Origin: a virus
Length of the DNA stretch: 64,000 bases
IMG/VR virus record: IMGVR_UViG_3300030099_007635
Span: 1 to 64,000 of that record
Reading direction: 5' to 3' (one strand)
Translations under genes and position numbers: made by a program
The notes under the pieces: generated by a model
What the model saw: only the letters and a program-made list of their open reading frames with translations
Database searches by the model: none
What the model was told of the DNA's origin: nothing
Part shown: one piece after another, positions 2,708 to 41,604 of the stretch
How the letters are laid out: each line of letters begins with the position of its first letter
How positions within the stretch are numbered: the stretch's first letter is position 1

Positions 2708-3838
2708 CTATTTTTCGTTGGGTGGTGCGATGGGATTAGACCATTCTGAAATAATTCTAGCAACTCCCCATCTTAAAGGTAATATTCTAGCAAAATCAAA
2801 TGTGTCAGGCTTTGGATGCGGGGGAACTCTTTCGTTTATTATAGACCAACCACTCCAAGGCTCGTAAACCTCTGTGATGTATTTAACTTTTTGATTGGTA
2901 TACCAGTAAGCGTAGAAGTAGGGCTGTAAATCGTTGGGCCATACCTCTATGAAAGGGGTTATGTATGGAGGTTCGGGCGGTGGTTGTATGCCAACTCTTG
3001 TTAATGTTTTTTTGCCAACGAAATCAACAGGTGGATGCAGGGTTACTCTGCCTCCTCTGTGCTTGACTTGAATTGCAAACGCAGAAGGAATGTAATCACT
3101 ACCCGCATCATCCATCTCTGACCCTATCTTGCGCCACCCATCAGGCAGAAATGGAAATTCTTTTTTATTAGAGTAGTAATACTGATCGTATTTACCTGTG
3201 TCTTCTCTTTGAAGCCACACAATATCTCCATTAATACCTGTTTTAAAGCCAGAGGATTTGTGAATTAGCGACTGGTCTAGGGTAATCGGAATAGGATAGC
3301 CCCTATTTAATGAATTAAAACCTCTAGTTACCCTGTATACCATTGGTAACCTTCTGACATATCCACCAAAAGCAATGACATAATCCTCCGATCTCTTTGA
3401 TTCAATCCAAAAGCCACTGGTTTCAGGTATGTAATACTCACCAAGATCGGTGTCTCCCCAACCAACCCCCTTCCATCCTACTGAAAGTCCCTCGGGATCG
3501 TTGATTAGGTCTTGATCGTTATAGTAGAACTGAATCCACTCATCACCATACTTCACCCACACTATGTCAGCATCCCTCCAGTAAGGATGTGCAACCAAAC
3601 CTATCTCATTATTAGGTCCAAATGCCTCGTTTATGCTGCGATTGTGACGACCATTTGGAGTTCTACTAACATTATATGCAATGTGAGTAAAGCTATTAGC
3701 CTTTATAGTCTCAACGTGGAAACCAACATAATCAGAGGTAGAGTAACTCGTTTGAGAGTAAGCTCTTTCTGCGTTTACCGCAAACGCAGACAATAAAAAT
3801 GAAATTAAACCCGCAAAATATGTATTTTTCCTGATCAC
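2708..3838 (-). CDS. exported protein with internal duplication, resembles Verrucomicrobial TIGR02597-type surface proteins
   Basis: Signal peptide (AVNA/E), SDYVGF start, two DIVW...YY...GW..G..D.G..YIP units, Pro-rich linker. Confidence 0.5.
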   Translation of the reverse strand: MIRKNTYFAGLISFLLSAFAVNAERAYSQTSYSTSDYVGFHVETIKANSFTHIAYNVSRTPNGRHNRSINEAFGPNNEIGLVAHPYWRDADIVWVKYGDEWIQFYYNDQDLINDPEGLSVGWKGVGWGDTDLGEYYIPETSGFWIESKRSEDYVIAFGGYVRRLPMVYRVTRGFNSLNRGYPIPITLDQSLIHKSSGFKTGINGDIVWLQREDTGKYDQYYYSNKKEFPFLPDGWRKIGSEMDDAGSDYIPSAFAIQVKHRGGRVTLHPPVDFVGKKTLTRVGIQPPPEPPYITPFIEVWPNDLQPYFYAYWYTNQKVKYITEVYEPWSGWSIINERVPPHPKPDTFDFARILPLRWGVARIISEWSNPIAPPNEK

Positions 3839-5204: not shown

Positions 5205-5661
5205 GGAACCAAGATGGTGTCTCTCTCTTACTCCACTTAGCAAAGTAAGCTTTTTCTCCGTTGTAGTATGACCTGTAAGCAGTAACAGAACAATCGTTTT
5301 TGTATTGCTCTGGCATTGCTTGTGCAAACTTGGTTAATCCTTTGCGTGGTATATTTAGCTTGTGGTAATTAGATCCACACCACTGGATAGCGTCGAGAGA
5401 CTTATGCACCTTGCCATAGCGTCTAGTATACTCTTGGCACATGGCGTAAGCGTGGTCTAGCAACCACTCGTAGTTCTCCGCTGACTCTCTAGCCCACTTA
5501 GTGCAGGGATGATTGTAGAATGCTCTCCTGTATGGAGCATCTCCATTAGGAAAGGCGGCACAGAGCATCTGCGCTGACTCTAAAATCATTTTGACTACAT
5601 GTTTATCACACAATTGTTGTGCGGCGGTCTTGGGGTCGGTGTCTACTGCAAATATATTCAT
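5197..5661 (-). CDS. pyrimidine-dimer DNA glycosylase (DenV)-like protein
   Basis: MNIF..D..A...CDKHVVKMILESAQML, NHPC..W, EY..RYGK.H. Confidence 0.7.
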   Translation of the reverse strand: MNIFAVDTDPKTAAQQLCDKHVVKMILESAQMLCAAFPNGDAPYRRAFYNHPCTKWARESAENYEWLLDHAYAMCQEYTRRYGKVHKSLDAIQWCGSNYHKLNIPRKGLTKFAQAMPEQYKNDCSVTAYRSYYNGEKAYFAKWSKRETPSWFHA

Positions 5662-5663
5662 GT

Positions 5664-6113
5664 TTATTTGGCGTTTTCTTTTTCGATCTGGGAGTAGTGT
5701 AGCCCATCATTGCCGTTACGTCCAATGATATCAATGCGTTTTTCTCCTTGAAGCTCTTGTTCTTCAGTTAACTTGGCATGGTAGTGGTGTAGGTTGCCTT
5801 TCCTCTCCTCCATGAGCATTGCTTTTGCGAGAATGGCATAGTTAACAATATCATCACAAGCATCTTCTACAGTTTCATTAGGGACAGATAATTCACTGTC
5901 ATTGGTGAACGAATAGATTCTTTTTATTTTGTCGATTACGCGGAGAAGCAAACCCTGCACAGGATGGATGTCCAGTATCTTAGATGCATTAAAATTAGCA
6001 AAGGGATCGGTAGCACCCTTGCCACCAGTGTAATCGCTGTTTTTCTTTTGCATGATTACCCTGCACTTGTCGCAGGTTTCCTCATGTAGTTCCAATAAGT
6101 CTTCAACGGTCAT
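5664..6113 (-). CDS. DUF1599 / nucleotide-modification-associated helical protein
   Basis: KKNSDY, DPFANF, R..DKIKR, ETVED..D..NYA. Confidence 0.65.
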   Translation of the reverse strand: MTVEDLLELHEETCDKCRVIMQKKNSDYTGGKGATDPFANFNASKILDIHPVQGLLLRVIDKIKRIYSFTNDSELSVPNETVEDACDDIVNYAILAKAMLMEERKGNLHHYHAKLTEEQELQGEKRIDIIGRNGNDGLHYSQIEKENAK

Positions 6114-6544
6114 AATTTTTTTATTCTTTCAAGGTAATCCCAAACTGTCTTCGCATACCAGCCGCCCCCACGCGGCGACTTTATTGCTCTGTTATTTAAT
6201 TCTTTAGCAATTGAGAGATAAGAGGTAAATCCAGCCTCGTTTAATTCTTTAAAAATTGGCTTCATCTCTCTAGCAAACTTATCTGCTTTATCTTTGTTGC
6301 GAGCCGCTTGAACCTTACCATGACTACCCAGTTTAACACCCCTAGCTTTCGCTGCTGCAAGACGTTCCTTGGTTATTTTACTTATATTACATCTCCTTCT
6401 CATGGAGTGGATTTCCCCATGGTGCTTGGGACACAAGGTTAGAAGGTTTGTTTCATCATCAGAACCACCCATAGATTTGGGTAACCAATGATGCTGTTCG
6501 ATGCCATCACTTTCTCCACAGATGGCGCAAAATTTTAATTTCAT
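6110..6544 (-). CDS. HNH endonuclease fused to serine-recombinase-type DNA-binding domain
   Basis: CAIC..HHWLP..GG....NL..LC..HH..IH, then KERLAAAKARGVKLG and IAKELN.R.I.SPRGG.W...TV. Confidence 0.7.
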   Translation of the reverse strand: MKLKFCAICGESDGIEQHHWLPKSMGGSDDETNLLTLCPKHHGEIHSMRRRCNISKITKERLAAAKARGVKLGSHGKVQAARNKDKADKFAREMKPIFKELNEAGFTSYLSIAKELNNRAIKSPRGGGWYAKTVWDYLERIKKL

Positions 6545-6565
6545 TAACCAATAAGTCTTTGATGG

Positions 6566-6895
6566 TCATTTAATTGGCTTCTTTGCTAAGTGTGTTGAGG
6601 AAATACTATACTCCGTGGAGTGTTGATTACCCTTCGCTATAGAGGTGAAGGTGAAGGAATCTTGAGGGTCAGCAGGACGACCATAGCCTCTCTCGTCCTC
6701 AAGTGTTTCTAACATTTTACACAGTTGATATTTGGTGAGAGTAACCGTCACTGGGAATTCTTTTTGTTTTTTATTCTCGTAAGTGACTGTTATTTTATCA
6801 ACCTTAGTCTCCGTGTTATTTGCCAGTATTAGGCTAACACAGAAGAGTGTTAAAGTAAAACAACAGGATAGAATGATTAGTGTTTTTTTATTCAT
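6566..6895 (-). CDS. hypothetical protein with N-terminal signal/TM
   Basis: Hydrophobic N-terminus. Confidence 0.6.
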   Translation of the reverse strand: MNKKTLIILSCCFTLTLFCVSLILANNTETKVDKITVTYENKKQKEFPVTVTLTKYQLCKMLETLEDERGYGRPADPQDSFTFTSIAKGNQHSTEYSISSTHLAKKPIK

Positions 6896-7359
6896 TAGTC
6901 TACTAGTAAGTTAAAAATTTCAACATCAGAGAATGTTTGGGGGTATTGGGCCGCTTCAATTAACAGTTGCTCTTTTGTTTCTAGAGATCTCATCGTCTCA
7001 TTAACAGTGGCAGAGTCAAGCATTAATTCTCTTGTCTCTATGTCATAGACATACAGATCATCATGGAATTTAGAATACTCTAAAATATAATCTATTGCTT
7101 GATCAAGAGTCTCGGTCTGCTCCAGCATCTCATCGTCATAGCTATTCTGAATCCTGATTTCATATTTGAAGGTCACCATAGCTAGATCAGTCTCTACAGC
7201 CTCTACAGCCTCAAGGAAGTCAAACTCAATAGATGGGTAAACAGATTCGTAGTCAACCTGCTTCTCTATGAAATGGACTGCAACCATCATGAAGCAGTAA
7301 ATGACCAAACCAAAAACTACTCCCACCCCCAAGGCTTGAATTAAATCTTTTTTATTCAT
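6895..7359 (-). CDS. membrane-anchored acidic hypothetical protein
   Basis: Start MNKKDLIQ at 7359, followed by a TM helix. Confidence 0.6.
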   Translation of the reverse strand: MNKKDLIQALGVGVVFGLVIYCFMMVAVHFIEKQVDYESVYPSIEFDFLEAVEAVETDLAMVTFKYEIRIQNSYDDEMLEQTETLDQAIDYILEYSKFHDDLYVYDIETRELMLDSATVNETMRSLETKEQLLIEAAQYPQTFSDVEIFNLLVD

Positions 7360-7621
7360 GGTTACTATTGTGTTTTTTCTTCTCTTCCATTCTACGGATA
7401 TGTTTATCCCAAATATTTTCCTGATCTGGAGTAGGGGTGAAAACTTGTGAAAGTCTACGCATTTTTTCTTGCTGTTGAAGATTGCGATAAACTTGCACAG
7501 GAAATTTAAAAAATGAATCAACCAAAGAGACCACACCAATAAAAAGGGATAACAAAACCCCCACTGTTAATGCGGCTATGATTGATACTGAGATATGGAG
7601 TATTTTTGTGTAGTTTGCCAT
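7352..7621 (-). CDS. small membrane protein
   Basis: N-terminal TM helix. Confidence 0.6.
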   Translation of the reverse strand: MANYTKILHISVSIIAALTVGVLLSLFIGVVSLVDSFFKFPVQVYRNLQQQEKMRRLSQVFTPTPDQENIWDKHIRRMEEKKKHNSNHE

Positions 7622-7701
7622 TACTTAGAAAGGAAAATCATTAACATAAAAAAAGCAAACACGAAAAGCAACAGGTGAATAATAGACTCAAACCTAGACA
7701 T
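7621..7701 (-). CDS. 26-aa hydrophobic peptide (MSRFESIIHLLLFVFAFFMLMIFLSK)
   Basis: Hand-translated; TAATG coupling to next gene. Confidence 0.5.
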   Translation of the reverse strand: MSRFESIIHLLLFVFAFFMLMIFLSK

Positions 7702-7731
7702 GTCGATTTATTTTTATTTTTTCGACACATT

Positions 7732-7971
7732 CTAGAATAATGTCGATTGATGCGCCATATCCTGCTCAGGAAAGTATTTTGCCAAGGCAGTTAGTCTGTC
7801 GTCAGCAGACACTAGCAATTCAAGAGCCTCATTTGCATTATCCCAGAAGTCGCTGGTAGAGTGGTCGCCAATGCCAGCGGGGTTCTCTGAAAGGATTTCG
7901 AGGCTGAGTAGAGCTTTGCTTTTATCTGCTTCAGCGGCAGACTTCAGCATTCTAAATAGTTCTGGTTTCAT
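7732..7971 (-). CDS. conserved phage hypothetical protein
   Basis: L..L.ENPAGIGDHS..D pattern. Confidence 0.65.
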   Translation of the reverse strand: MKPELFRMLKSAAEADKSKALLSLEILSENPAGIGDHSTSDFWDNANEALELLVSADDRLTALAKYFPEQDMAHQSTLF

Positions 7972-8090
7972 TTCTTTTCTTTCTCTTTTTCTAGGAGTTC
8001 ACGTTCTTGGTCGGTGTTAATCCCTAAGAAGCGGCACAGTAAAAGCATGAACGCTATCCAGGCGGTAATAATTAATATCCATGTTAACAC
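7968..8090 (-). CDS. 40-aa single-TM peptide (GTG start)
   Basis: Hand-translated; 6 nt after TATAAT; ATGA overlap with next gene. Confidence 0.55.
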   Translation of the reverse strand: MLTWILIITAWIAFMLLLCRFLGINTDQERELLEKEKEKK

Positions 8091-8096
8091 GTTGTC

Positions 8097-8124
8097 ATTA
8101 TAATGCAGATGAAATCCCCGTCAA
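8097..8124 (-). promoter_or_regulatory. sigma70-like promoter TTGACG-N16-TATAAT
   Basis: Near-consensus boxes, 6 nt before GTG. Confidence 0.7.
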
Positions 8125-8151
8125 GAGATTTTTTCCAGATTCTTGAAAAAA

Positions 8152-8157
8152 GTGTAA
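8152..8157 (+). promoter_or_regulatory. GTGTAA motif
   Basis: 10 nt before ATG 8168. Confidence 0.55.
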
Positions 8158-8167
8158 CTTAAGAGGT

Positions 8168-8452
8168 ATGCCGTTAGATTTACTAGGAGAAATTCACTAC
8201 AGTCACTCATCGGGGTCGGGGGACTGGGCCACCTTTAGGAGTGAGGTAACAGGAATGTATACACTAAGTGGTGGTTTATCTCTAAACGGTGGGTGGTTTG
8301 AACAGCACTTAATAAAAGAGTATAATCGGAAAGTTGATGAGCTTCATACAAGCTGGACGGGAAACGCACCAGTAACCACGGGATTATTGATAGAACCTTA
8401 TGACGCAGGTTTTAGCTATCAAGGAACAGGGGACTTCAGAAATTATCCTTAA
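8168..8452 (+). CDS. hypothetical protein (SG/TG-rich, possibly virion-associated)
   Basis: Isolated plus-strand ORF with GTGTAA motif; composition like the tail proteins. Confidence 0.6.
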   Translation: MPLDLLGEIHYSHSSGSGDWATFRSEVTGMYTLSGGLSLNGGWFEQHLIKEYNRKVDELHTSWTGNAPVTTGLLIEPYDAGFSYQGTGDFRNYP

Positions 8453-9153: not shown

Positions 9154-9336
9154 TTACTTCTGCTTGGCTTTCCCAATGTTTAAAGCTGCCCAATCAATAA
9201 CTTTGTAAAGCTTGGACAGAAAAGTCCCCTCTTTAGGGGTAGGGGTTGCAGCCGCAACTGCTGACGCAAGAGCGATAACAGACGCAACTACACCAAACCA
9301 AGGGTTATCCTGAACTAGTTGTAGAATAGTATCCAT
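9154..9336 (-). CDS. small holin-like membrane protein
   Basis: MDTILQL..TM..ASAVAAATPTP....KLYKVIDWAALNIGKAK; start 9336 follows GTGTAA. Confidence 0.55.
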   Translation of the reverse strand: MDTILQLVQDNPWFGVVASVIALASAVAAATPTPKEGTFLSKLYKVIDWAALNIGKAKQK

Positions 9337-9344
9337 GTCCTTAT

Positions 9345-9350
9345 TTACAC
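9345..9350 (-). promoter_or_regulatory. GTGTAA motif
   Basis: 8 nt before ATG 9336. Confidence 0.55.
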
Positions 9351-9950
9351 CTAATCGGGCTGAACGTGGCTTGAGTTTCTCATTTTTTGCCAAAAATTTC
9401 TGTCAGCCCACTCTTCTTGAAATCTTTCTTTATTGGCTTTTTTCCACCTTTCATAAGAATCTTTTGTTATTTGGAGGGCAACATTTCTAGACCTCCAATC
9501 GCCCACTTTGGTATCAGAATCTCTGTCTATCTTGTATATTTTGAAAAATTGCCTATATATCTTAAGGTGCGAAGACTCAATATCATGAACTGTTTTATAT
9601 TTTTCTAGGGGTGACCAGTGTGGAACGGCAATAATTTTATTGTCTATTTGCCCACCATCAACAAAACCCAATACCCCCAAAACCCTACACGAAACTAAAC
9701 TACCCCTATCAATAGGGTCATGATTAAAAACTAAAACATCAAGTGGATCATCATCCAATGCAATAGTCTGTGGGACAAAACCATAATTAATCGGATATTT
9801 TAGGGAAGAAACTAAACATCTATCTAATTTAAATATATTTAAATTCTCATCATACTCGTATTTTGTATTGGTTCCCTTAGGAATCTCGACAATACAATTT
9901 ATATGATCGTAATCATCTGTGGTAATCGGTATGTCATTTACTAAGTTCAT
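9351..9950 (-). CDS. ppa: family I inorganic pyrophosphatase
   Basis: VEIPKG..KYE, DR, YPINYGFVPQT..DDDPLDVLV, D.KII. Confidence 0.9.
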   Translation of the reverse strand: MNLVNDIPITTDDYDHINCIVEIPKGTNTKYEYDENLNIFKLDRCLVSSLKYPINYGFVPQTIALDDDPLDVLVFNHDPIDRGSLVSCRVLGVLGFVDGGQIDNKIIAVPHWSPLEKYKTVHDIESSHLKIYRQFFKIYKIDRDSDTKVGDWRSRNVALQITKDSYERWKKANKERFQEEWADRNFWQKMRNSSHVQPD

Positions 9951-10088: not shown

Positions 10089-10379
10089 TTAAAGTAAAAC
10101 GTAGGTTGGAGCGATCTCCTCGATTTCTTCGCAAACACTTTCAATTTCGCGCCTGTTCATTTTTTCAGTAAACTGTTTCAGTTTGCTTACTTCGCAACAA
10201 AACCTCTGGTATTCGTGACTTTGGGTTATCTTTTGCTTGGTTTTACAATCGTAAATAAAACCATCTAAGACTTCATATCTTGTAGGGTCAATGCATTTTT
10301 CGATTGGGTCAAAAACAGAGTGACCTACAACGTAATTAAAGATGTCGTGACGACTAACCTTAATGTTAACTTTCTCCAT
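10089..10379 (-). CDS. hypothetical protein
   Basis: ORF; TATAAT 6 nt upstream. Confidence 0.65.
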   Translation of the reverse strand: MEKVNIKVSRHDIFNYVVGHSVFDPIEKCIDPTRYEVLDGFIYDCKTKQKITQSHEYQRFCCEVSKLKQFTEKMNRREIESVCEEIEEIAPTYVLL

Positions 10380-10410
10380 CTCCCTATTATAATAGGAAGG
10401 TAAAGTTAAT

Positions 10411-11031
10411 CTACAGAATTCTTATTCTACTACGAATTTTTGAAACGTGGCGTTTCTTTTCTAGCACTGATCCACCCTCCCTGCTCCCAGCACCATTAGT
10501 ATTACCTTCAATGGTGACTACATAACCGCTTGAATCTACGTCTTTTACCGCGATTCCAATATGAGAAAAAGTAAACACAACAATATCGCCAGCTTTAATG
10601 TCTTCGTTTGTGGGTTTACGCAGTTCTATTCCTCTATTTGATTCTTGTTTAGCCCAGTTTTCAAAGTCCCACGCTCCTGCGGTTCTGGGGCGCTTAAAGG
10701 ATACTTCCTCTCCCTCTATAGCTTCCCTGACTAACCAGCAAATAAAAGCAGCACACCAAGGCCAACCCTTTTCAGCATCGAGCCATGTAGCCGCCTTGTA
10801 TTCATCAACTCTTGGCCCACAATTACTACCATCCACCTCGGATACTCCTATTTCTTCTCTTGCTAATGAAACCATTTTTTCAGGAATACTTCCCTTTGGA
10901 GCAGCAGTTTCCTTGGTAGATAGTTTAGCTAAAATAGCATTCCATGTCACAGGACCATCTGCACCATCCGCAGAAACTCCCAAAATCTTTTGGACTGCTC
11001 TAACCACCTCTTTTTTTCCTTTAAAATTCAT
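10411..11031 (-). CDS. endolysin: peptidoglycan-binding domain + CHAP amidase/peptidase
   Basis: VQKILGVSADGADGPVT; WCAAFICW, SHIGI, TIEGNT. Confidence 0.85.
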   Translation of the reverse strand: MNFKGKKEVVRAVQKILGVSADGADGPVTWNAILAKLSTKETAAPKGSIPEKMVSLAREEIGVSEVDGSNCGPRVDEYKAATWLDAEKGWPWCAAFICWLVREAIEGEEVSFKRPRTAGAWDFENWAKQESNRGIELRKPTNEDIKAGDIVVFTFSHIGIAVKDVDSSGYVVTIEGNTNGAGSREGGSVLEKKRHVSKIRSRIRIL

Positions 11032-11633
11032 CTACACCTCCTACTAAATGATGCACATATTGACATTACAACCGATAAAACAATAGCTAGAATCATAAAG
11101 TCTCTAAAATTATGTATTCTTTCATGTAATTCCTCAGACTTTCTTTCATTATAATACATCTTAGTATCCATAATGTTATTGATAGCCTCGATAGTTGGAT
11201 CGGTCATCGTATACATGTGAGGAATCGAAGCTTTAATGCTATCAACGTCTTCTTTGTTTCCCCACTCAATCAATTGACTAACATAAGAACTTATTTTCTT
11301 CTCTTGCTCAAAAACAAAATCTGCATATTCAGTCTCATCGGGAGTAATATCTTTCTTGTAGCCCTCTAGATATTCGTCTTTATTTACACTTTCCTCCTCT
11401 AGAACTTCAACCATTTCACTAGGAGATATAATACCGTGGGAAGTTTTTATGACAGAATCTACGATGATCACACCATACCAATCAAAGCACATTCCGATCT
11501 CCATGATAGATGACTCCGATTGACGAGCATTTTCTGCTAGTGTGTTATTTATATCCTCTGTGAGAGTAGCACCTCTCCAGCCAAAAATTAAACAAATTGC
11601 AGCTAGGCAATAAACAATAAACTTAGGTCTCAT
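11028..11633 (-). CDS. stand-alone chemoreceptor-type four-helix-bundle (4HB_MCP-like) periplasmic domain between two TM helices
   Basis: TM1 aa 5-22; Y.V.IVD...K...G, Y....TPDE, MY...DP..E.I..I; TM2 near C-terminus; no HAMP or signalling domain. Confidence 0.65.
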   Translation of the reverse strand: MRPKFIVYCLAAICLIFGWRGATLTEDINNTLAENARQSESSIMEIGMCFDWYGVIIVDSVIKTSHGIISPSEMVEVLEEESVNKDEYLEGYKKDITPDETEYADFVFEQEKKISSYVSQLIEWGNKEDVDSIKASIPHMYTMTDPTIEAINNIMDTKMYYNERKSEELHERIHNFRDFMILAIVLSVVMSICASFSRRCR

Positions 11634-11947
11634 TTTTTAATAAATTTTTCTGGGTTCTTGGCGAATTTTTCCCCTAATCGCACGATACCACTAATTACTT
11701 CTGGGCTAATTACACCAATGATACCATAAGTGATCGCTTTTGTAAGTGAGGATACGTCTGTTTGTTCTAATACAAACCAAGCAATTCCAGCGGCTATAGC
11801 CGCCGTAAGCACTCTTTTAAATTGTTGTTTTAATGAAAGACCACTATTCCCCGATAATAGCCTTGCAAACATTGCTGCTGCACCCACCAAAGGCACAAGC
11901 CAGCCCCCGTTTAAAAACTCTTTTAAAATAGATTTTTCAGGTTCCAT
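11630..11947 (-). CDS. putative holin, 3 TM helices
   Basis: Three hydrophobic segments, basic C-terminus, first gene of endolysin operon. Confidence 0.65.
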   Translation of the reverse strand: MEPEKSILKEFLNGGWLVPLVGAAAMFARLLSGNSGLSLKQQFKRVLTAAIAAGIAWFVLEQTDVSSLTKAITYGIIGVISPEVISGIVRLGEKFAKNPEKFIKK

Positions 11948-11957
11948 GTTTATTTAT

Positions 11958-11963
11958 TTACAC
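11958..11963 (-). promoter_or_regulatory. GTGTAA motif heading lysis operon
   Basis: 10 nt before ATG 11947, just downstream of a terminator. Confidence 0.6.
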
Positions 11964-11970
11964 GGGATAC

Positions 11971-11999
11971 AAAAAAAGCCCCCCTTGCGGGAGGCTTTT
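11971..11999 (-). terminator. intrinsic terminator, probably bidirectional
   Basis: AAAAGCCTCCC-GCAA-GGGGGGCTTTTTTT. Confidence 0.85.
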
Positions 12000-12027
12000 C
12001 TTTTACTTTTTTAAAAACGTAGAGTTA

Positions 12028-12720
12028 TTAGAATTTGTATGAAACTCCTGCTCCAATCGACCACTCATTATCTAAGCTGTATGCGCTAGAAGAATCAAGA
12101 TCGTTATCGTTATAACCTCCTTTTACAAAAACAGAAGCCGCTTCAGTGATTTTGTAAGAGGCCGCTAAGCCAGCTTCAAAAGCTGTATATTCATCAGCAA
12201 GATTAAGTCCAGCAAAAGGTGTCAATACTAAACCGTCTACTGGAGTGTCAATATCGCGAGAAAGAATAAACTCTACTCCATATGCACCGCCAGAACCACC
12301 GCCTACTTCATGCCATAGAGTAGCTGTAAGATCTGCAAGGGCGTGACTGTAAGTAAGGCTTGCTCCGACTTCATCCCAACCACCAAAGGAAGAATCAATC
12401 CTTTGGAAGTAGAAGTCAGCTTCAAGGTCTTGACCTAAAAGACTAATACCTCTGGAATAAGACAAGGAAATGTCTTGTTCATAGCCTCCGTCAACATCGA
12501 AAATGTCAATGCCAACTGAAGCAGTCCCTCCCGCTTTTACTGGAGCAGAGAGTGTGAGAGAATAGCTAAATGCGTCATCTCTGATTCCGACTCCTCCACT
12601 AGTGGAAAGAGTGCTGTATGAAACACCACCTTCTACAGAGACATCTGCGAGAGTGGTGGCTTTAACTGCGCCAACCATAGCAGCGCCCATCAGTAGTGTT
12701 GTAAGAATTAATTTCTTCAT
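12028..12720 (-). CDS. outer-membrane beta-barrel protein (TorF/TIGR02001-like porin fold)
   Basis: Signal peptide, alternating amphipathic strands, C-terminal Bam signal GVSYKF. Confidence 0.75.
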   Translation of the reverse strand: MKKLILTTLLMGAAMVGAVKATTLADVSVEGGVSYSTLSTSGGVGIRDDAFSYSLTLSAPVKAGGTASVGIDIFDVDGGYEQDISLSYSRGISLLGQDLEADFYFQRIDSSFGGWDEVGASLTYSHALADLTATLWHEVGGGSGGAYGVEFILSRDIDTPVDGLVLTPFAGLNLADEYTAFEAGLAASYKITEAASVFVKGGYNDNDLDSSSAYSLDNEWSIGAGVSYKF

Positions 12721-13209: not shown

Positions 13210-13494
13210 TTATTTGGAATAAATTTCTCTTTCGAGTCGCCTATAGCGAGCATCAGAGTGCCACACCTCATCAGTTTGAGGGGTATAGACTCCATCTATT
13301 GTTTGAATAGGACTATTCTTCTTGAGCCTTAGAGTAGAAGGCTGATATATGTTCAAATTGTTCACGCTCATATTTGAGTTGCTTACGCAGGAGGTCAGCC
13401 CGATCAGCATCGTTGCTATCCCCACTCTCCCTAAGCTCTTCAATTTGGTAAATAAGCTCTTGCTCTGTCTCTTTGTGCTGCCAGTATAAGTCAT
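13210..13494 (-). CDS. putative lipoprotein (o-spanin candidate); start uncertain
   Basis: KLKSLGRVGIATMLIGLTSC lipobox; overlaps upstream ORF out of frame. Confidence 0.5.
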   Translation of the reverse strand: MTYTGSTKRQSKSLFTKLKSLGRVGIATMLIGLTSCVSNSNMSVNNLNIYQPSTLRLKKNSPIQTIDGVYTPQTDEVWHSDARYRRLEREIYSK

Positions 13495-13567
13495 AATAAA
13501 ATTTTTTATTTTTTAAACTAAGAAAAAGTTCTAAAGATTTGAAAATAGATTTAATTAGCGCGAACAT
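13313..13567 (-). CDS. coiled-coil protein (i-spanin candidate)
   Basis: Amphipathic/hydrophobic N-terminus then charged helix; overlaps the lipoprotein gene. Confidence 0.45.
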   Translation of the reverse strand: MFALIKSIFKSLELFLSLKNKKFYYDLYWQHKETEQELIYQIEELRESGDSNDADRADLLRKQLKYEREQFEHISAFYSKAQEE

Positions 13568-14477: not shown

Positions 14478-14505
14478 ATCTTTATTATATTATATAATAA
14501 TAAAA

Positions 14506-14511
14506 GTGTAA
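14506..14511 (+). promoter_or_regulatory. GTGTAA motif heading tail-tip operon
   Basis: 8 nt before ATG 14520. Confidence 0.6.
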
Positions 14512-14519
14512 ATCTAAAC

Positions 14520-39037: not shown

Positions 39038-39043
39038 AATTAT

Positions 39044-39049
39044 TTACAC
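39044..39049 (-). promoter_or_regulatory. GTGTAA motif
   Basis: 6 and 9 nt before tandem ATGs of clpC. Confidence 0.5.
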
Positions 39050-41604
39050 TATTTAAGTTCAGATAGCTTCATGTAGATTTTATCCTTAAGAGGAAAAACT
39101 TTATCAACAAAAACTACATCATCTCCTTTAGAGCCATATATAATGACTACATCCCCTTTTTGGGGAAGTTTTTTACCAGAATCTAAGTAATCAGTTAAAC
39201 GAGCAGCACGTTGACTATCTAAAAATAATCCGTCAATAGCTCCACCCTCATCTTGGAAGTTCATTCTTGCATACTTGTTACCATTTCGACTGGTCCTGCG
39301 AATAATGTCAGTCAAAACACCCACAAATTTAACATTAGCTCTCTCTGGTAAATCTTTTACTACATCTGAAGAGTTAAAGTCTCCCTCATAACTAAAAACT
39401 TCTCTAATATTATGTGAATAACTATATCCAAGTAACTTCTCCTCAAAATACCAATTAGCGTATTTTGTGTGTTCCTTGTTCATCTCATAAATTTTCTTAT
39501 AAGGTGAAAACTTTTTCTTGAAAGTCTCAAATCTTTTAGGAGCAAAAATTTTCCTATTATCATCTCCAACCATTTCCTGCTTACGCACATCATGAATTGA
39601 ATTTATGATATCATAATCATAGTTTGGTCCAAGCTCAATCAGGTTTCTCTTCTCTCGATCAGTCAAGATGTTAAAGGTCTGAGCTTCAAGAACTAGTCGC
39701 GGTCTGTTACTAGAAACAAAAGAGTCTAGAAGACCAGCTTGAATTAATGCTGAGAGGGTTCCTATGTTAAGTCCTGCTTGCTTGGCCGAAAGAAACACTT
39801 CGTATTTATTGTCAAATGACTCCTCTCTGAATTCTAGTAGCGATTCTAATACTTTAGTAGAAACTCCCTTGATGGAATTTAAACCATATCTAATATTCTT
39901 ACCCTCAATTTTAAAATCAATGTCTGACTTATTCAGGTCTGGTGGAAGTAACTTTATATCAAAGTGAGAAAGCTCTTGTGATATTTTAGCTATCTCCTCA
40001 TGAGAATTAGGCTCATACTTTGCATATTTTAAAAGACTTAAAAAGAATTCTTTTGGATATTGAAATTTAAGATAAACAGTGATTGCTGCCAAATAAGCAT
40101 AGCTTATAGAGTGAGACTTGTTAAATGAATAGTTTGCAGAATCTTCAGCCACGCTCCAAAGTATTTCCCCAATAGATGGGTCTAATTTATTTTCCTGTAT
40201 CTTCTCTTCAATCTTAGCCTTCCACGCTGGCATTTGATCAACCTTCTTCTTGCCTACAATACGTCGAAGTTGCTCCGCTTCATCAAGGCTAAATCCAACC
40301 TTAACTGCCATTTTCATCAACTGCTCCTGATACAGAGGAATGCCTCCTGTATAGCTCAAAATGTCATCAAAAAACTCATGAACCGACTGGAACTCGCCTG
40401 TCCTTGCATACTCAGCATACCTGTCCTTAAAGTCTAAAGCTCCAGGTCTTGCAATAGCCACCACCGCAGATAATTGCTCAAGATTCTGAGGCGCTATCAA
40501 GCGGCAGACCTTAAAGTTGGTGTCTGCTTCAATTTGGAATAAGCCTTGAGGAGAGCGTAGGGATGATAGAGCCGTGTAAATTATAGGATCGTGAGGATCT
40601 ATATCTTCAGCTTTGATTCCCAACTGCTTACAAACATCATGGACCACAGAAAGAGTTCTTAATCCAAGAATATCAAACTTTACGCTTAGACTGGCTACGT
40701 CATTCATGTCGTAACCAGAAACTAATGCTCCATCATTTGTTGTTTGAAGAGGCATTATGTCATCAAGCTCATAATAAGAGATTGATACGCCAGATGGGTG
40801 AACTCCAGTATTTTTATTCAAGCCCTCTAGTTTTTTGGCTATCTTAAATACTTTTGCATATTTATCTGCATACTCTCTGAAAGTTTCACTTTCGTCATAT
40901 GCGACATCTAATTTAGCTACTATGCCAAAATGTTTTGGAATCGTATCACTGATTTGGTTTACATCTACTTCGGATAGCTCTTCAACAATCTTCCCGCACT
41001 CCTTCATGCAGAGCTTGCCGCTTAATGTATTCAGCGTCAAAATCTTAGAGGTTTTACCCTCATATTTTTTTTCAATGTATTCTATGACTTCTGCACGACG
41101 ATCATAAGAAATATCATTATCAACATCAGCTAATAAGCTACCGTCCAAGTAGACTTCGCCTTCATGCTCAATCTTTCTTGCTCTACTCTTTGACACAAAC
41201 CTCTCAAAGAAGAGGTCATACTCTATGGGGTCGATGTTCGTTACACCTATGACATACAATACTAATGAACCAGCGGCACTTCCCCTACCTGCCCCTGTTG
41301 GAATATCGTTTTCCTTGCAGAAGTTCATGATATCCCAATTAAGTAGAATATAATCCACGAACCCTAACTCATCGAAGATAGTTAACTCTTCTTTTAGTCG
41401 GTCATAGTAAAGTTGAGGATTGTCTACCTTATCTATGCCTTTTTCTTTTACCTTTTTAAAGCATAGCTTCCTGAGGAATTGATAGTTATCTTCCAGGTCA
41501 CTGCAAGAAACTTCGTCGTAATATTTTTTTTCTATTTTAATTTCTGGTAGCTTAACTCCCACGGGAAAGGGTGTATTGTAGCCTGTAAAGGTTGTAGAAC
41601 TCAT
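39049..41604 (-). CDS. dnaE: DNA polymerase III alpha catalytic core (no PHP domain)
   Basis: GRGSAAGSLV, FERF, DVDND, HPSG, KFDILGL, IARPG, YQEQ, YSFNKSH, C-terminal OB fold. Confidence 0.9.
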   Translation of the reverse strand: MSSTTFTGYNTPFPVGVKLPEIKIEKKYYDEVSCSDLEDNYQFLRKLCFKKVKEKGIDKVDNPQLYYDRLKEELTIFDELGFVDYILLNWDIMNFCKENDIPTGAGRGSAAGSLVLYVIGVTNIDPIEYDLFFERFVSKSRARKIEHEGEVYLDGSLLADVDNDISYDRRAEVIEYIEKKYEGKTSKILTLNTLSGKLCMKECGKIVEELSEVDVNQISDTIPKHFGIVAKLDVAYDESETFREYADKYAKVFKIAKKLEGLNKNTGVHPSGVSISYYELDDIMPLQTTNDGALVSGYDMNDVASLSVKFDILGLRTLSVVHDVCKQLGIKAEDIDPHDPIIYTALSSLRSPQGLFQIEADTNFKVCRLIAPQNLEQLSAVVAIARPGALDFKDRYAEYARTGEFQSVHEFFDDILSYTGGIPLYQEQLMKMAVKVGFSLDEAEQLRRIVGKKKVDQMPAWKAKIEEKIQENKLDPSIGEILWSVAEDSANYSFNKSHSISYAYLAAITVYLKFQYPKEFFLSLLKYAKYEPNSHEEIAKISQELSHFDIKLLPPDLNKSDIDFKIEGKNIRYGLNSIKGVSTKVLESLLEFREESFDNKYEVFLSAKQAGLNIGTLSALIQAGLLDSFVSSNRPRLVLEAQTFNILTDREKRNLIELGPNYDYDIINSIHDVRKQEMVGDDNRKIFAPKRFETFKKKFSPYKKIYEMNKEHTKYANWYFEEKLLGYSYSHNIREVFSYEGDFNSSDVVKDLPERANVKFVGVLTDIIRRTSRNGNKYARMNFQDEGGAIDGLFLDSQRAARLTDYLDSGKKLPQKGDVVIIYGSKGDDVVFVDKVFPLKDKIYMKLSELK

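Follow-up and report, generated by a model that had tools for sequence, protein, structure and literature searches.

An optional chemoreceptor-type sensor in a predicted membrane hairpin encoded beside the holin of marine phages

A three-gene lysis cassette in an uncultured marine phage

This study concerns a 64,000-nucleotide stretch of viral DNA, positions 1 to 64,000 of IMG/VR record IMGVR_UViG_3300030099_007635 (hereafter the window), and within it a lysis cassette whose middle gene encodes a predicted membrane-anchored sensor of the chemoreceptor type. The source is a fragment of an uncultured, siphovirus-like marine phage with a G+C content of about 38 % and no close cultured relative. 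Neither the cassette nor its sensor or holin, used as queries in blastn and tblastn, matched anything in a collection of cultured phages, and the relatives returned by a polymerase search of cultured phages are all below 30 % identity.

The cassette consists of three minus-strand genes lying 3' of a terminator, with a 4-nucleotide (nt) overlap at each junction. The terminator-like element, a G+C-rich hairpin with a T-run at 11980..11994 (-), closes the upstream outer-membrane protein gene and parts that gene from the lysis genes. The motif CGTGTAAAT follows at 11956..11964 (-), 8 nt 5' of the ATG of a holin-like gene at 11630..11947 (-), whose 105 amino acids (aa) form three hydrophobic helices and a charged C-terminus. 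The middle gene, our main subject, occupies 11028..11633 (-) and encodes a 201-aa protein arranged as a transmembrane helix (TM1), a predicted four-helix-bundle sensor and a second transmembrane helix (TM2). The last gene, at 10411..11031 (-), encodes a 206-aa endolysin with a peptidoglycan-binding-like N-terminus and a CHAP peptidase domain, and without a signal or signal-arrest-release sequence. The endolysin passes the Pfam CHAP cut-off (35.8 bits against 26) and matches PHROG endolysin families at 1e-15. A first-pass annotation of the same DNA had described this arrangement of terminator, motif, three open reading frames (ORFs) and overlaps, and its ORFs and coordinates are as we find them.

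The holin-like protein has helices at residues 17-32, 39-62 and 67-97 in its predicted structure (pLDDT 68). Its small size, three transmembrane (TM) helices, charged C-terminal tail and neighbouring endolysin give it the layout of holin superfamily III, to which lambda S and P1 LydA belong. Family matches of the window protein are weak (Phage_holin_3_3, 0.059; phrog_6384, 0.0016). Its relatives score better (9.5e-5 and 5.5e-7, respectively), and window protein and relatives alike stay below the Pfam gathering scores. Architecture, position by the endolysin and convergent sub-threshold matches to superfamily III together mark the 105-aa gene as holin-like, probably of the LydA/lambda-S type.

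The middle protein resembles chemoreceptor sensor domains

Two hydrophobic helices, at about aa 4-21 and 177-196, enclose about 155 helical residues in the middle protein, which stops five residues past the second of them. TM1 (aa 4-21; 11571..11624, minus strand) runs on into the first helix of the sensor and is preceded by a basic N-terminus, MRPK, which points to an N-in orientation. The predicted periplasmic four-helix bundle spans aa 22-176 (11106..11570, minus strand). TM2 (aa 177-196; 11046..11105, minus strand) is followed by a basic tail of five residues, SRRCR. The layout of one TM segment, some 150 helical residues, a second TM segment and an abrupt end had been read from the sequence in the first-pass annotation and holds, and the patterns quoted there as typical of 4HB_MCP domains are present as YGVIIVDSVIKTSHG, YKKDITPDE and YTMTDPTIEAI.

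Taken alone, the window protein has no match in Pfam or PHROGs, and neither 4HB_MCP_1 nor TarH appears even at E values up to 1. It has more than 200 close homologues. An exhaustive HMMER search returned 38 relatives, including about 20 distant full-length homologues of 195-257 aa at 19-30 % identity, all built as TM segment, about 150 helical residues and TM segment. No HAMP, signalling or kinase domain was found past TM2 in the window protein (Pfam), and all 38 HMMER relatives are at most 257 aa long and lack an output domain. One of the 38, P0151, is a fragment of a true chemoreceptor, with matches to 4HB_MCP_1 (5.3e-24) and TarH (3.1e-19) and the start of a HAMP domain. A profile built from the phage family only aligns with P0151 at 97.8 % probability in hhalign (E 1.2e-12, 152 columns in register), and phmmer gives 1.2e-5. 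The phage-type members P0135 and P0140 match 4HB_MCP_1 weakly (0.005-0.008), also in register. Identity to any cellular receptor is just about 21 %. A search for related loci of the distant homologues P0137, P0128 and P0139 found none.

The AlphaFold model of the middle protein (pLDDT 89) contains four helices, at residues 3-65, 71-93, 98-126 and 137-200. They are predicted to form an antiparallel bundle between the TM segments, in which helix 1 is an extension of TM1 and helix 4 leads straight into TM2. We compared this model with known structures using VIA-align. Ligand-binding domains of receptors gave Z scores of 13-14.4 at a root-mean-square deviation (rmsd) of 1.9-2.6 Å, led by MCP2201 (Z 14.3, rmsd 1.9 Å, 137 of 141 residues aligned) and Vc1313 (Z 14.3, 154 of 158 residues). 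The chemoreceptor and sensor-kinase domains of PcaY_PP, Tar, Tsr and NarQ were further top matches, and full-length receptor models align across both TM segments, over 199 and 197 aa. The structural match proposed in the first-pass annotation is therefore borne out by VIA-align; Foldseek against the Protein Data Bank (PDB), in turn, returned nothing at E <= 0.001, although its top rows are all four-helix-bundle sensors. A profile search of PDB sequences found only de novo designed helical proteins, which are composition-type matches and uninformative. Feature-based neighbours in the ESM Atlas are short 4HB_MCP_1, TarH and CHASE3 clusters and serve as a lead only. On the sequence profile and the predicted fold together, the middle protein is truly, if remotely, related to the 4HB_MCP_1/TarH sensor domains and carries no output domain, as had been proposed.

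The conserved unit is the holin and its partner

About 80 contigs of the window lineage preserve the order holin, sensor, endolysin. There are three exceptions in which the endolysin is replaced. In these loci (L024, at 5610-8219, L027 and L077) an 870-aa repeat-rich, fibre-like gene stands in place of the CHAP endolysin after the sensor gene, and the endolysin of these genomes must be located elsewhere. An ATGA overlap with the holin stop codon is present in essentially all loci that bear the four-helix bundle.

Two more distant lineages keep the sensor gene right after the holin and have no endolysin nearby. The holin is 60 % and the sensor 25 % identical to those of the window in L082-L085, and the corresponding values in L086 are 35 % and about 20 %. 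The 4-nt overlap with the holin stop survives in three divergent lineages, and the two distant lineages keep it at a sensor identity of only 20-27 %. Recurrence of holin, four-helix-bundle gene and endolysin, a check suggested in the first-pass annotation, was seen in the window lineage, and in the distant lineages it extends to the holin and sensor only. Because the endolysin adjoins only in the window phage's own lineage, the conserved unit, judged from gene order, is the holin with its partner rather than the three-gene set. As is expected of an antiholin, the partner is encoded beside the holin, with the overlap in the window and in the three divergent lineages.

A series of hairpins in the slot after the holin

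We sampled 80 loci through the holin alone and scored the gene that overlaps the holin stop (ATGA). The full sensor form, of 198-202 aa, occupies this slot in 18 of them. Six loci carry a 79-aa form (the mid hairpin) with a TM segment, a 30-residue loop and a second TM segment, and 31 carry a bare two-TM hairpin of 49-57 aa (the mini hairpin). The partner is absent from 21 loci in which at least 1.1 kb of downstream sequence is present, and in the remaining four the slot falls at the contig end and was left unclassed.

The short forms are related to the sensor protein. Compared by phmmer with all 5,856 ORFs of the loci, they match only short and full forms (2.8e-6, 6e-4 and 7e-3) and no other protein up to an E value of 10. 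Over its first 32 residues, the 79-aa form shares 44 % identity with the window protein, and the C-terminal tails are alike, for example ...ALCLSLCIGMAIRE against ...ALCISLCAGISIRE. Mini and mid hairpins have no match in PHROGs or Pfam. By these comparisons the short forms are homologous to the TM ends of the sensor protein, and TM2 with its basic tail corresponds to the second TM segment and tail of the mini and mid hairpins.

The two kinds of partner can occur with one and the same holin. An identical holin protein is followed by a mini hairpin in L087 and by the full sensor in L082 and L088. In a DNA comparison of identical-holin loci the flanks are collinear and the swap is limited to the partner slot. 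Loop length ranges from about 5 to about 155 residues on an identical holin. The mini forms have hardly any periplasmic part and lack the charged cytoplasmic tail typical of holins. One locus, L141, carries at 3315-3440 a 41-aa remnant in the slot, with a hairpin-like start (MKILAWFLFFF) that gives way to a poly-lysine/poly-A tract, and this slot looks like a decayed partner gene.

A holin tree implies at least eight changes of partner state, and the full sensor forms lie in its most divergent branches. The tree is short and midpoint-rooted, and on this rooting it suggests that the sensor was lost repeatedly. Because the short forms match the TM ends, an identical holin carries either form and the partnerless loci make up 21 of the 80, we conclude from these sequence comparisons that the constant partner of the holin is a dispensable two-helix membrane hairpin, and that the four-helix bundle is an optional periplasmic insert in it.

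Selection on the cassette

We estimated the ratio of nonsynonymous to synonymous substitution rates (dN/dS) from 68 distinct coding sequences of related contigs; synonymous sites are near saturation, so the ratios are approximate. For whole genes the ratio is 0.07 (sensor protein), 0.04 (holin) and 0.045 (endolysin). Within the sensor protein, helix 3 (0.13) and TM2 (0.15) are the most variable parts, and helices 1 (aa 34-59) and 4 (aa 139-163) are almost invariant among close relatives. In Tar-type sensors these two helices make up the dimer and ligand face, and their constancy is an indirect hint that the bundle may bind a ligand or a ligand-loaded binding protein or form a homodimer. The sensor gene evolves about twice as fast as its neighbours at nonsynonymous sites, with a dN of 0.139 against 0.064 and 0.071. 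Since the middle protein has many homologues, the gene order recurs in about 80 related viral contigs and dN/dS is low, the ORFs of the cassette are, on this comparative evidence, real genes under purifying selection and not chance ORFs.

Neighbouring genes and other features

A MipA-like outer-membrane beta-barrel gene lies directly 5' of the lysis genes (12028..12720, minus strand; 31 bits for Pfam MipA, where the cut-off is 24.2). The identity of the barrel among relatives swings between 41 % and 100 %, and the flanking genes are steady at 90-100 %. Because of these swings between steady flanks, we take the gene to be a mosaic, fast-swapping cassette.

An overlapped gene pair is found 1.3 kb upstream of the cassette. 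It encodes an 84-aa coiled-coil protein (13313..13567, minus strand) and a 94-aa lipoprotein with the lipobox LTSC (13210..13494, minus strand). The two genes overlap out of frame by 182 nt in the window and by 137-200 nt in 70 of the 70 loci that have both. The two reading frames are conserved in these 70 related loci, the overlapped pair occurs in the distant L086 too, again with both frames conserved, and the lipobox is present in all 53 distinct lipoprotein sequences. The arrangement is typical of overlapped spanins, and we regard the two genes as a candidate spanin pair, the lipoprotein as the possible outer-membrane partner and the coiled-coil protein as a possible, atypical inner-membrane one: its N-terminus is amphipathic and has no clear TM segment, which is atypical for a spanin.

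The motif GTGTAAAT sits 4-8 nt 5' of four start codons in the window. Three of these sites are on the minus strand, before the holin (11956-11964), before an internal Met of a small TM protein (9343-9351) and before a ClpC-like gene (39042-39050), and the fourth lies on the plus strand before a minor tail gene (14505-14513). With one mismatch allowed, the CGTGTAAAT nonamer occurs 14 times in the window against 13 expected. Because it is thus unenriched overall, its placement at start codons is the sole argument for it. The GTGTAAAT element could act as a late promoter or, with nearly no leader, as a signal for the start of translation. The small single-TM protein (9154-9393, minus strand) belongs to phrog_9685, bears the motif TPTPK...LYK.ID.AALNIGKAK and is kept in nearly all related loci as well as in L086 and L141. 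It probably starts at Met20 (9336), just 3' of the GTGTAAAT motif.

Two sets of sequencing reads touch the cassette. A candidate RNA run, whose RNA nature is a guess, contains two 150-nt contigs on the endolysin gene; one of them extends just 29 nt into the sensor gene, and we did not count it as bridging. Run X9 ('organism A', 2025), which is labelled by organism and not as a metagenome, contains 56 % of the words of the cassette when compared with 10300-12100, in many variant contigs of 85-99 % likeness. It may derive from a culture or holobiont carrying relatives of the source phage, and could hint at the host.

Discussion

The observations above can be drawn together in a model in which the middle protein is an inner-membrane hairpin, coupled to the holin, that shifts the time of triggering through its TM segments and in which the sensor is a modular input. 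We give this model an even chance of being right. The protein would be inserted N-in, with TM1, a periplasmic loop, TM2 and a C-in terminus, and its production would be translationally coupled to that of the three-TM holin. The two TM helices would be the working end and would associate with the holin in the membrane, and this association would shift the trigger time, most likely as a delay in the manner of an antiholin. The bundle would act as the input, with something periplasmic altering the packing or register of TM1 and TM2. The parts of the model that we infer are holin contact, the direction in which timing shifts, and the existence and nature of a ligand. The first-pass annotation had proposed a ligand-responsive antiholin or lysis timer that works through TM contacts and resembles T4 RI/T, a reading supported in part. 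Action through TM contacts has indirect support, because in relatives the slot overlapping the holin retains just two TM segments, and the same holin protein can accompany either form. As the hairpin is dispensable and the bundle optional, an accessory regulator fits and an essential lysis component is disfavoured; the accessory character expected of an antiholin comes by comparison only, from the partnerless loci among those picked by the holin. The sensor-bearing hairpin is thus probably an optional tuner of lysis timing.

A chemically gated lysis clock can be built on the same parts. If the bundle were occupied, whether by a small molecule, by a loaded binding protein or by a product of envelope damage, TM2 would shift against TM1, as it does in chemoreceptors, and so hold or release the holin within the membrane, and the bare hairpins would be a constitutive, sensor-less version of the regulator. 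We consider this gating possible but rather doubtful.

Several points weigh against a holin-directed hairpin with a sensor. Coupling of genes is no proof of shared function, and the identity of the holin depends on sub-threshold family matches plus architecture and position. Complex prediction with the sensor and holin families scored 0.00, a result that counts neither for nor against contact. TM2 is the fastest-evolving part of the protein, unlike what would be expected for a highly specific TM interface. As for the sensor, the window protein by itself has no Pfam match, and Z scores of about 14 can be reached by helical bundles through shape alone; we therefore rested homology on sequence and fold jointly. 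The conserved sensor residues are mostly common to the bona fide chemoreceptor P0151, so they may be structural and uninformative on a ligand.

The hairpin might instead be a second structural subunit of the hole, as in a two-component holin, with the bundle as a periplasmic scaffold that might, for instance, shape the lesion or contact peptidoglycan, and that senses nothing. Two-component holins are known from Gram-positive phages, the bare hairpins share their topology with class II holins, and the partner is translationally coupled to the holin in fixed order. About a quarter of the holin-bearing relatives do without a partner, however, so the holin works alone, and neither the missing holin-typical tail of the mini forms nor the spread of loop lengths on an identical holin suits a structural subunit; we judge this reading unlikely. 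Similarly improbable, in our view, is a membrane protein of other purpose that is merely co-transcribed late, whose role might for example be superinfection exclusion, a block on foreign holins or on DNA entering the cell, or a watch on the envelope for another phage process. Phage late operons do mix functions, the neighbouring outer-membrane barrel and lipoprotein are envelope proteins too, and the raised dN of the sensor gene is a pace common in conflict-related genes. Against such a purpose stands the 4-nt overlap, which is with the holin only and persists where all other neighbours differ.

Sensors of the Tar type dimerize through helices 1 and 4 and the TM segments. A decoy could be imagined that pairs with host chemoreceptors or sensor kinases of the same bundle and silences host signalling as a dominant-negative heterodimer. 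Helices 1 and 4 are the most conserved part here and the nearest cellular relative is a real chemoreceptor, but the low identity to cellular receptors, the bundle-less forms filling the same slot and expression with the late lysis genes, when host signalling is hardly important, make a decoy very unlikely. Least credible is a spanin-type link of inner and outer membranes for the last lysis step, although the gene sits in a lysis cassette with a Gram-negative-type envelope context and encodes a membrane anchor and a helical periplasmic domain. The first-pass annotation had named a spanin subunit as an alternative, and the evidence did not bear it out. Both ends of the protein are TM helices of one membrane, and where the inner-membrane spanin of a pair such as Rz/Rz1 has a single N-terminal TM segment, a free periplasmic C-terminus and a lipoprotein gene inside or beside its own, the middle protein has a conserved C-terminal TM2 with a basic cytoplasmic tail. 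No ORF of at least 20 aa with a lipobox, and hence no embedded lipoprotein, was found inside the middle gene; the mini forms are almost without a periplasmic part; and a separate, conserved candidate pair lies upstream. We ruled out a unimolecular spanin (u-spanin) such as T1 gp11 as well, as Cys9 and Cys14, near the N-terminus, are not conserved in distant full-length homologues and the protein is thus no lipoprotein.

A holin-coupled hairpin with an optional sensor has partial counterparts among known systems. Tar, Tsr, MCP2201, PcaY_PP, Vc1313 and NarQ share the order of TM1, antiparallel four-helix bundle and TM2, and in them too the first and last bundle helices run on into the TM segments. 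Unlike these chemoreceptors and kinases, the window protein has no HAMP, kinase or methyl-accepting domain, and it is phage-encoded and coupled to a holin. Another cellular parallel is GlnX of Corynebacterium glutamicum, which consists of TM helices and periplasmic four-helix-bundle modules only and lacks enzymatic output; its signal is proposed to pass through contiguous helices to a bound partner (PMC9769921). With four TM segments and two bundles, GlnX is paired with a cytoplasmic kinase, whereas the partner in the window would be a membrane holin.

Among phage proteins, T4 RI is a small periplasmic antiholin; once freed from its signal peptide, it attaches to the holin T at the large periplasmic domain of T (PMC8385771). 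RI and, in our model, the window protein are alike as phage proteins with a periplasmic domain proposed to relay a signal from the envelope to the holin and postpone lysis. The window holin, however, offers no large periplasmic domain of the kind used by RI, its periplasmic parts being limited to some 15 residues at the N-terminus and a loop of about 10; the partner keeps two TM anchors, and no relation in sequence or fold was found. Vibrio phage ICP1 encodes a TM antiholin, ArrA, near its holin TeaA, and ArrA is conserved yet non-essential (PMC7182436). Like the window protein it contains a TM segment and is encoded near a holin in a marine-type phage, but a tblastn search of the phage collection with the window protein found no similarity, and a sensor domain is unreported for ArrA. 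In P1 the gene of the antiholin LydB lies directly 3' of the lydA holin gene (PMC9025707). The best Pfam matches of the window holin and its relatives are to the LydA family; LydB has no TM segment and no known relation in fold to the middle protein. A literature search found no description of a chemoreceptor-type sensor coupled to a holin. What is new here, from the comparison of loci picked by their holin, is an optional sensor on a hairpin core.

Lysis timing sets the burst size and fitness of a phage. To our knowledge, environmental sensing by a phage at the level of the holin is well understood only for the lysis inhibition of T-even phages (and ICP1). A chemoreceptor sensor on a holin would, if our model is right, give the environment a second and mechanistically different way to influence lysis, and the phages concerned are common in ocean metagenomes. 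Such a pairing would, besides, offer a minimal case of Tar-type transmembrane signalling without a cytoplasmic domain. The natural series, which runs from full sensor through 79-aa form and bare hairpin to the lack of a partner and includes cases that share an identical holin, supplies ready-made constructs for studying modulation of the holin by the hairpin and the contribution of the sensor. Should the gated clock prove true, abundant marine phages would time their latent period according to a cue from the periplasm or from outside the cell.

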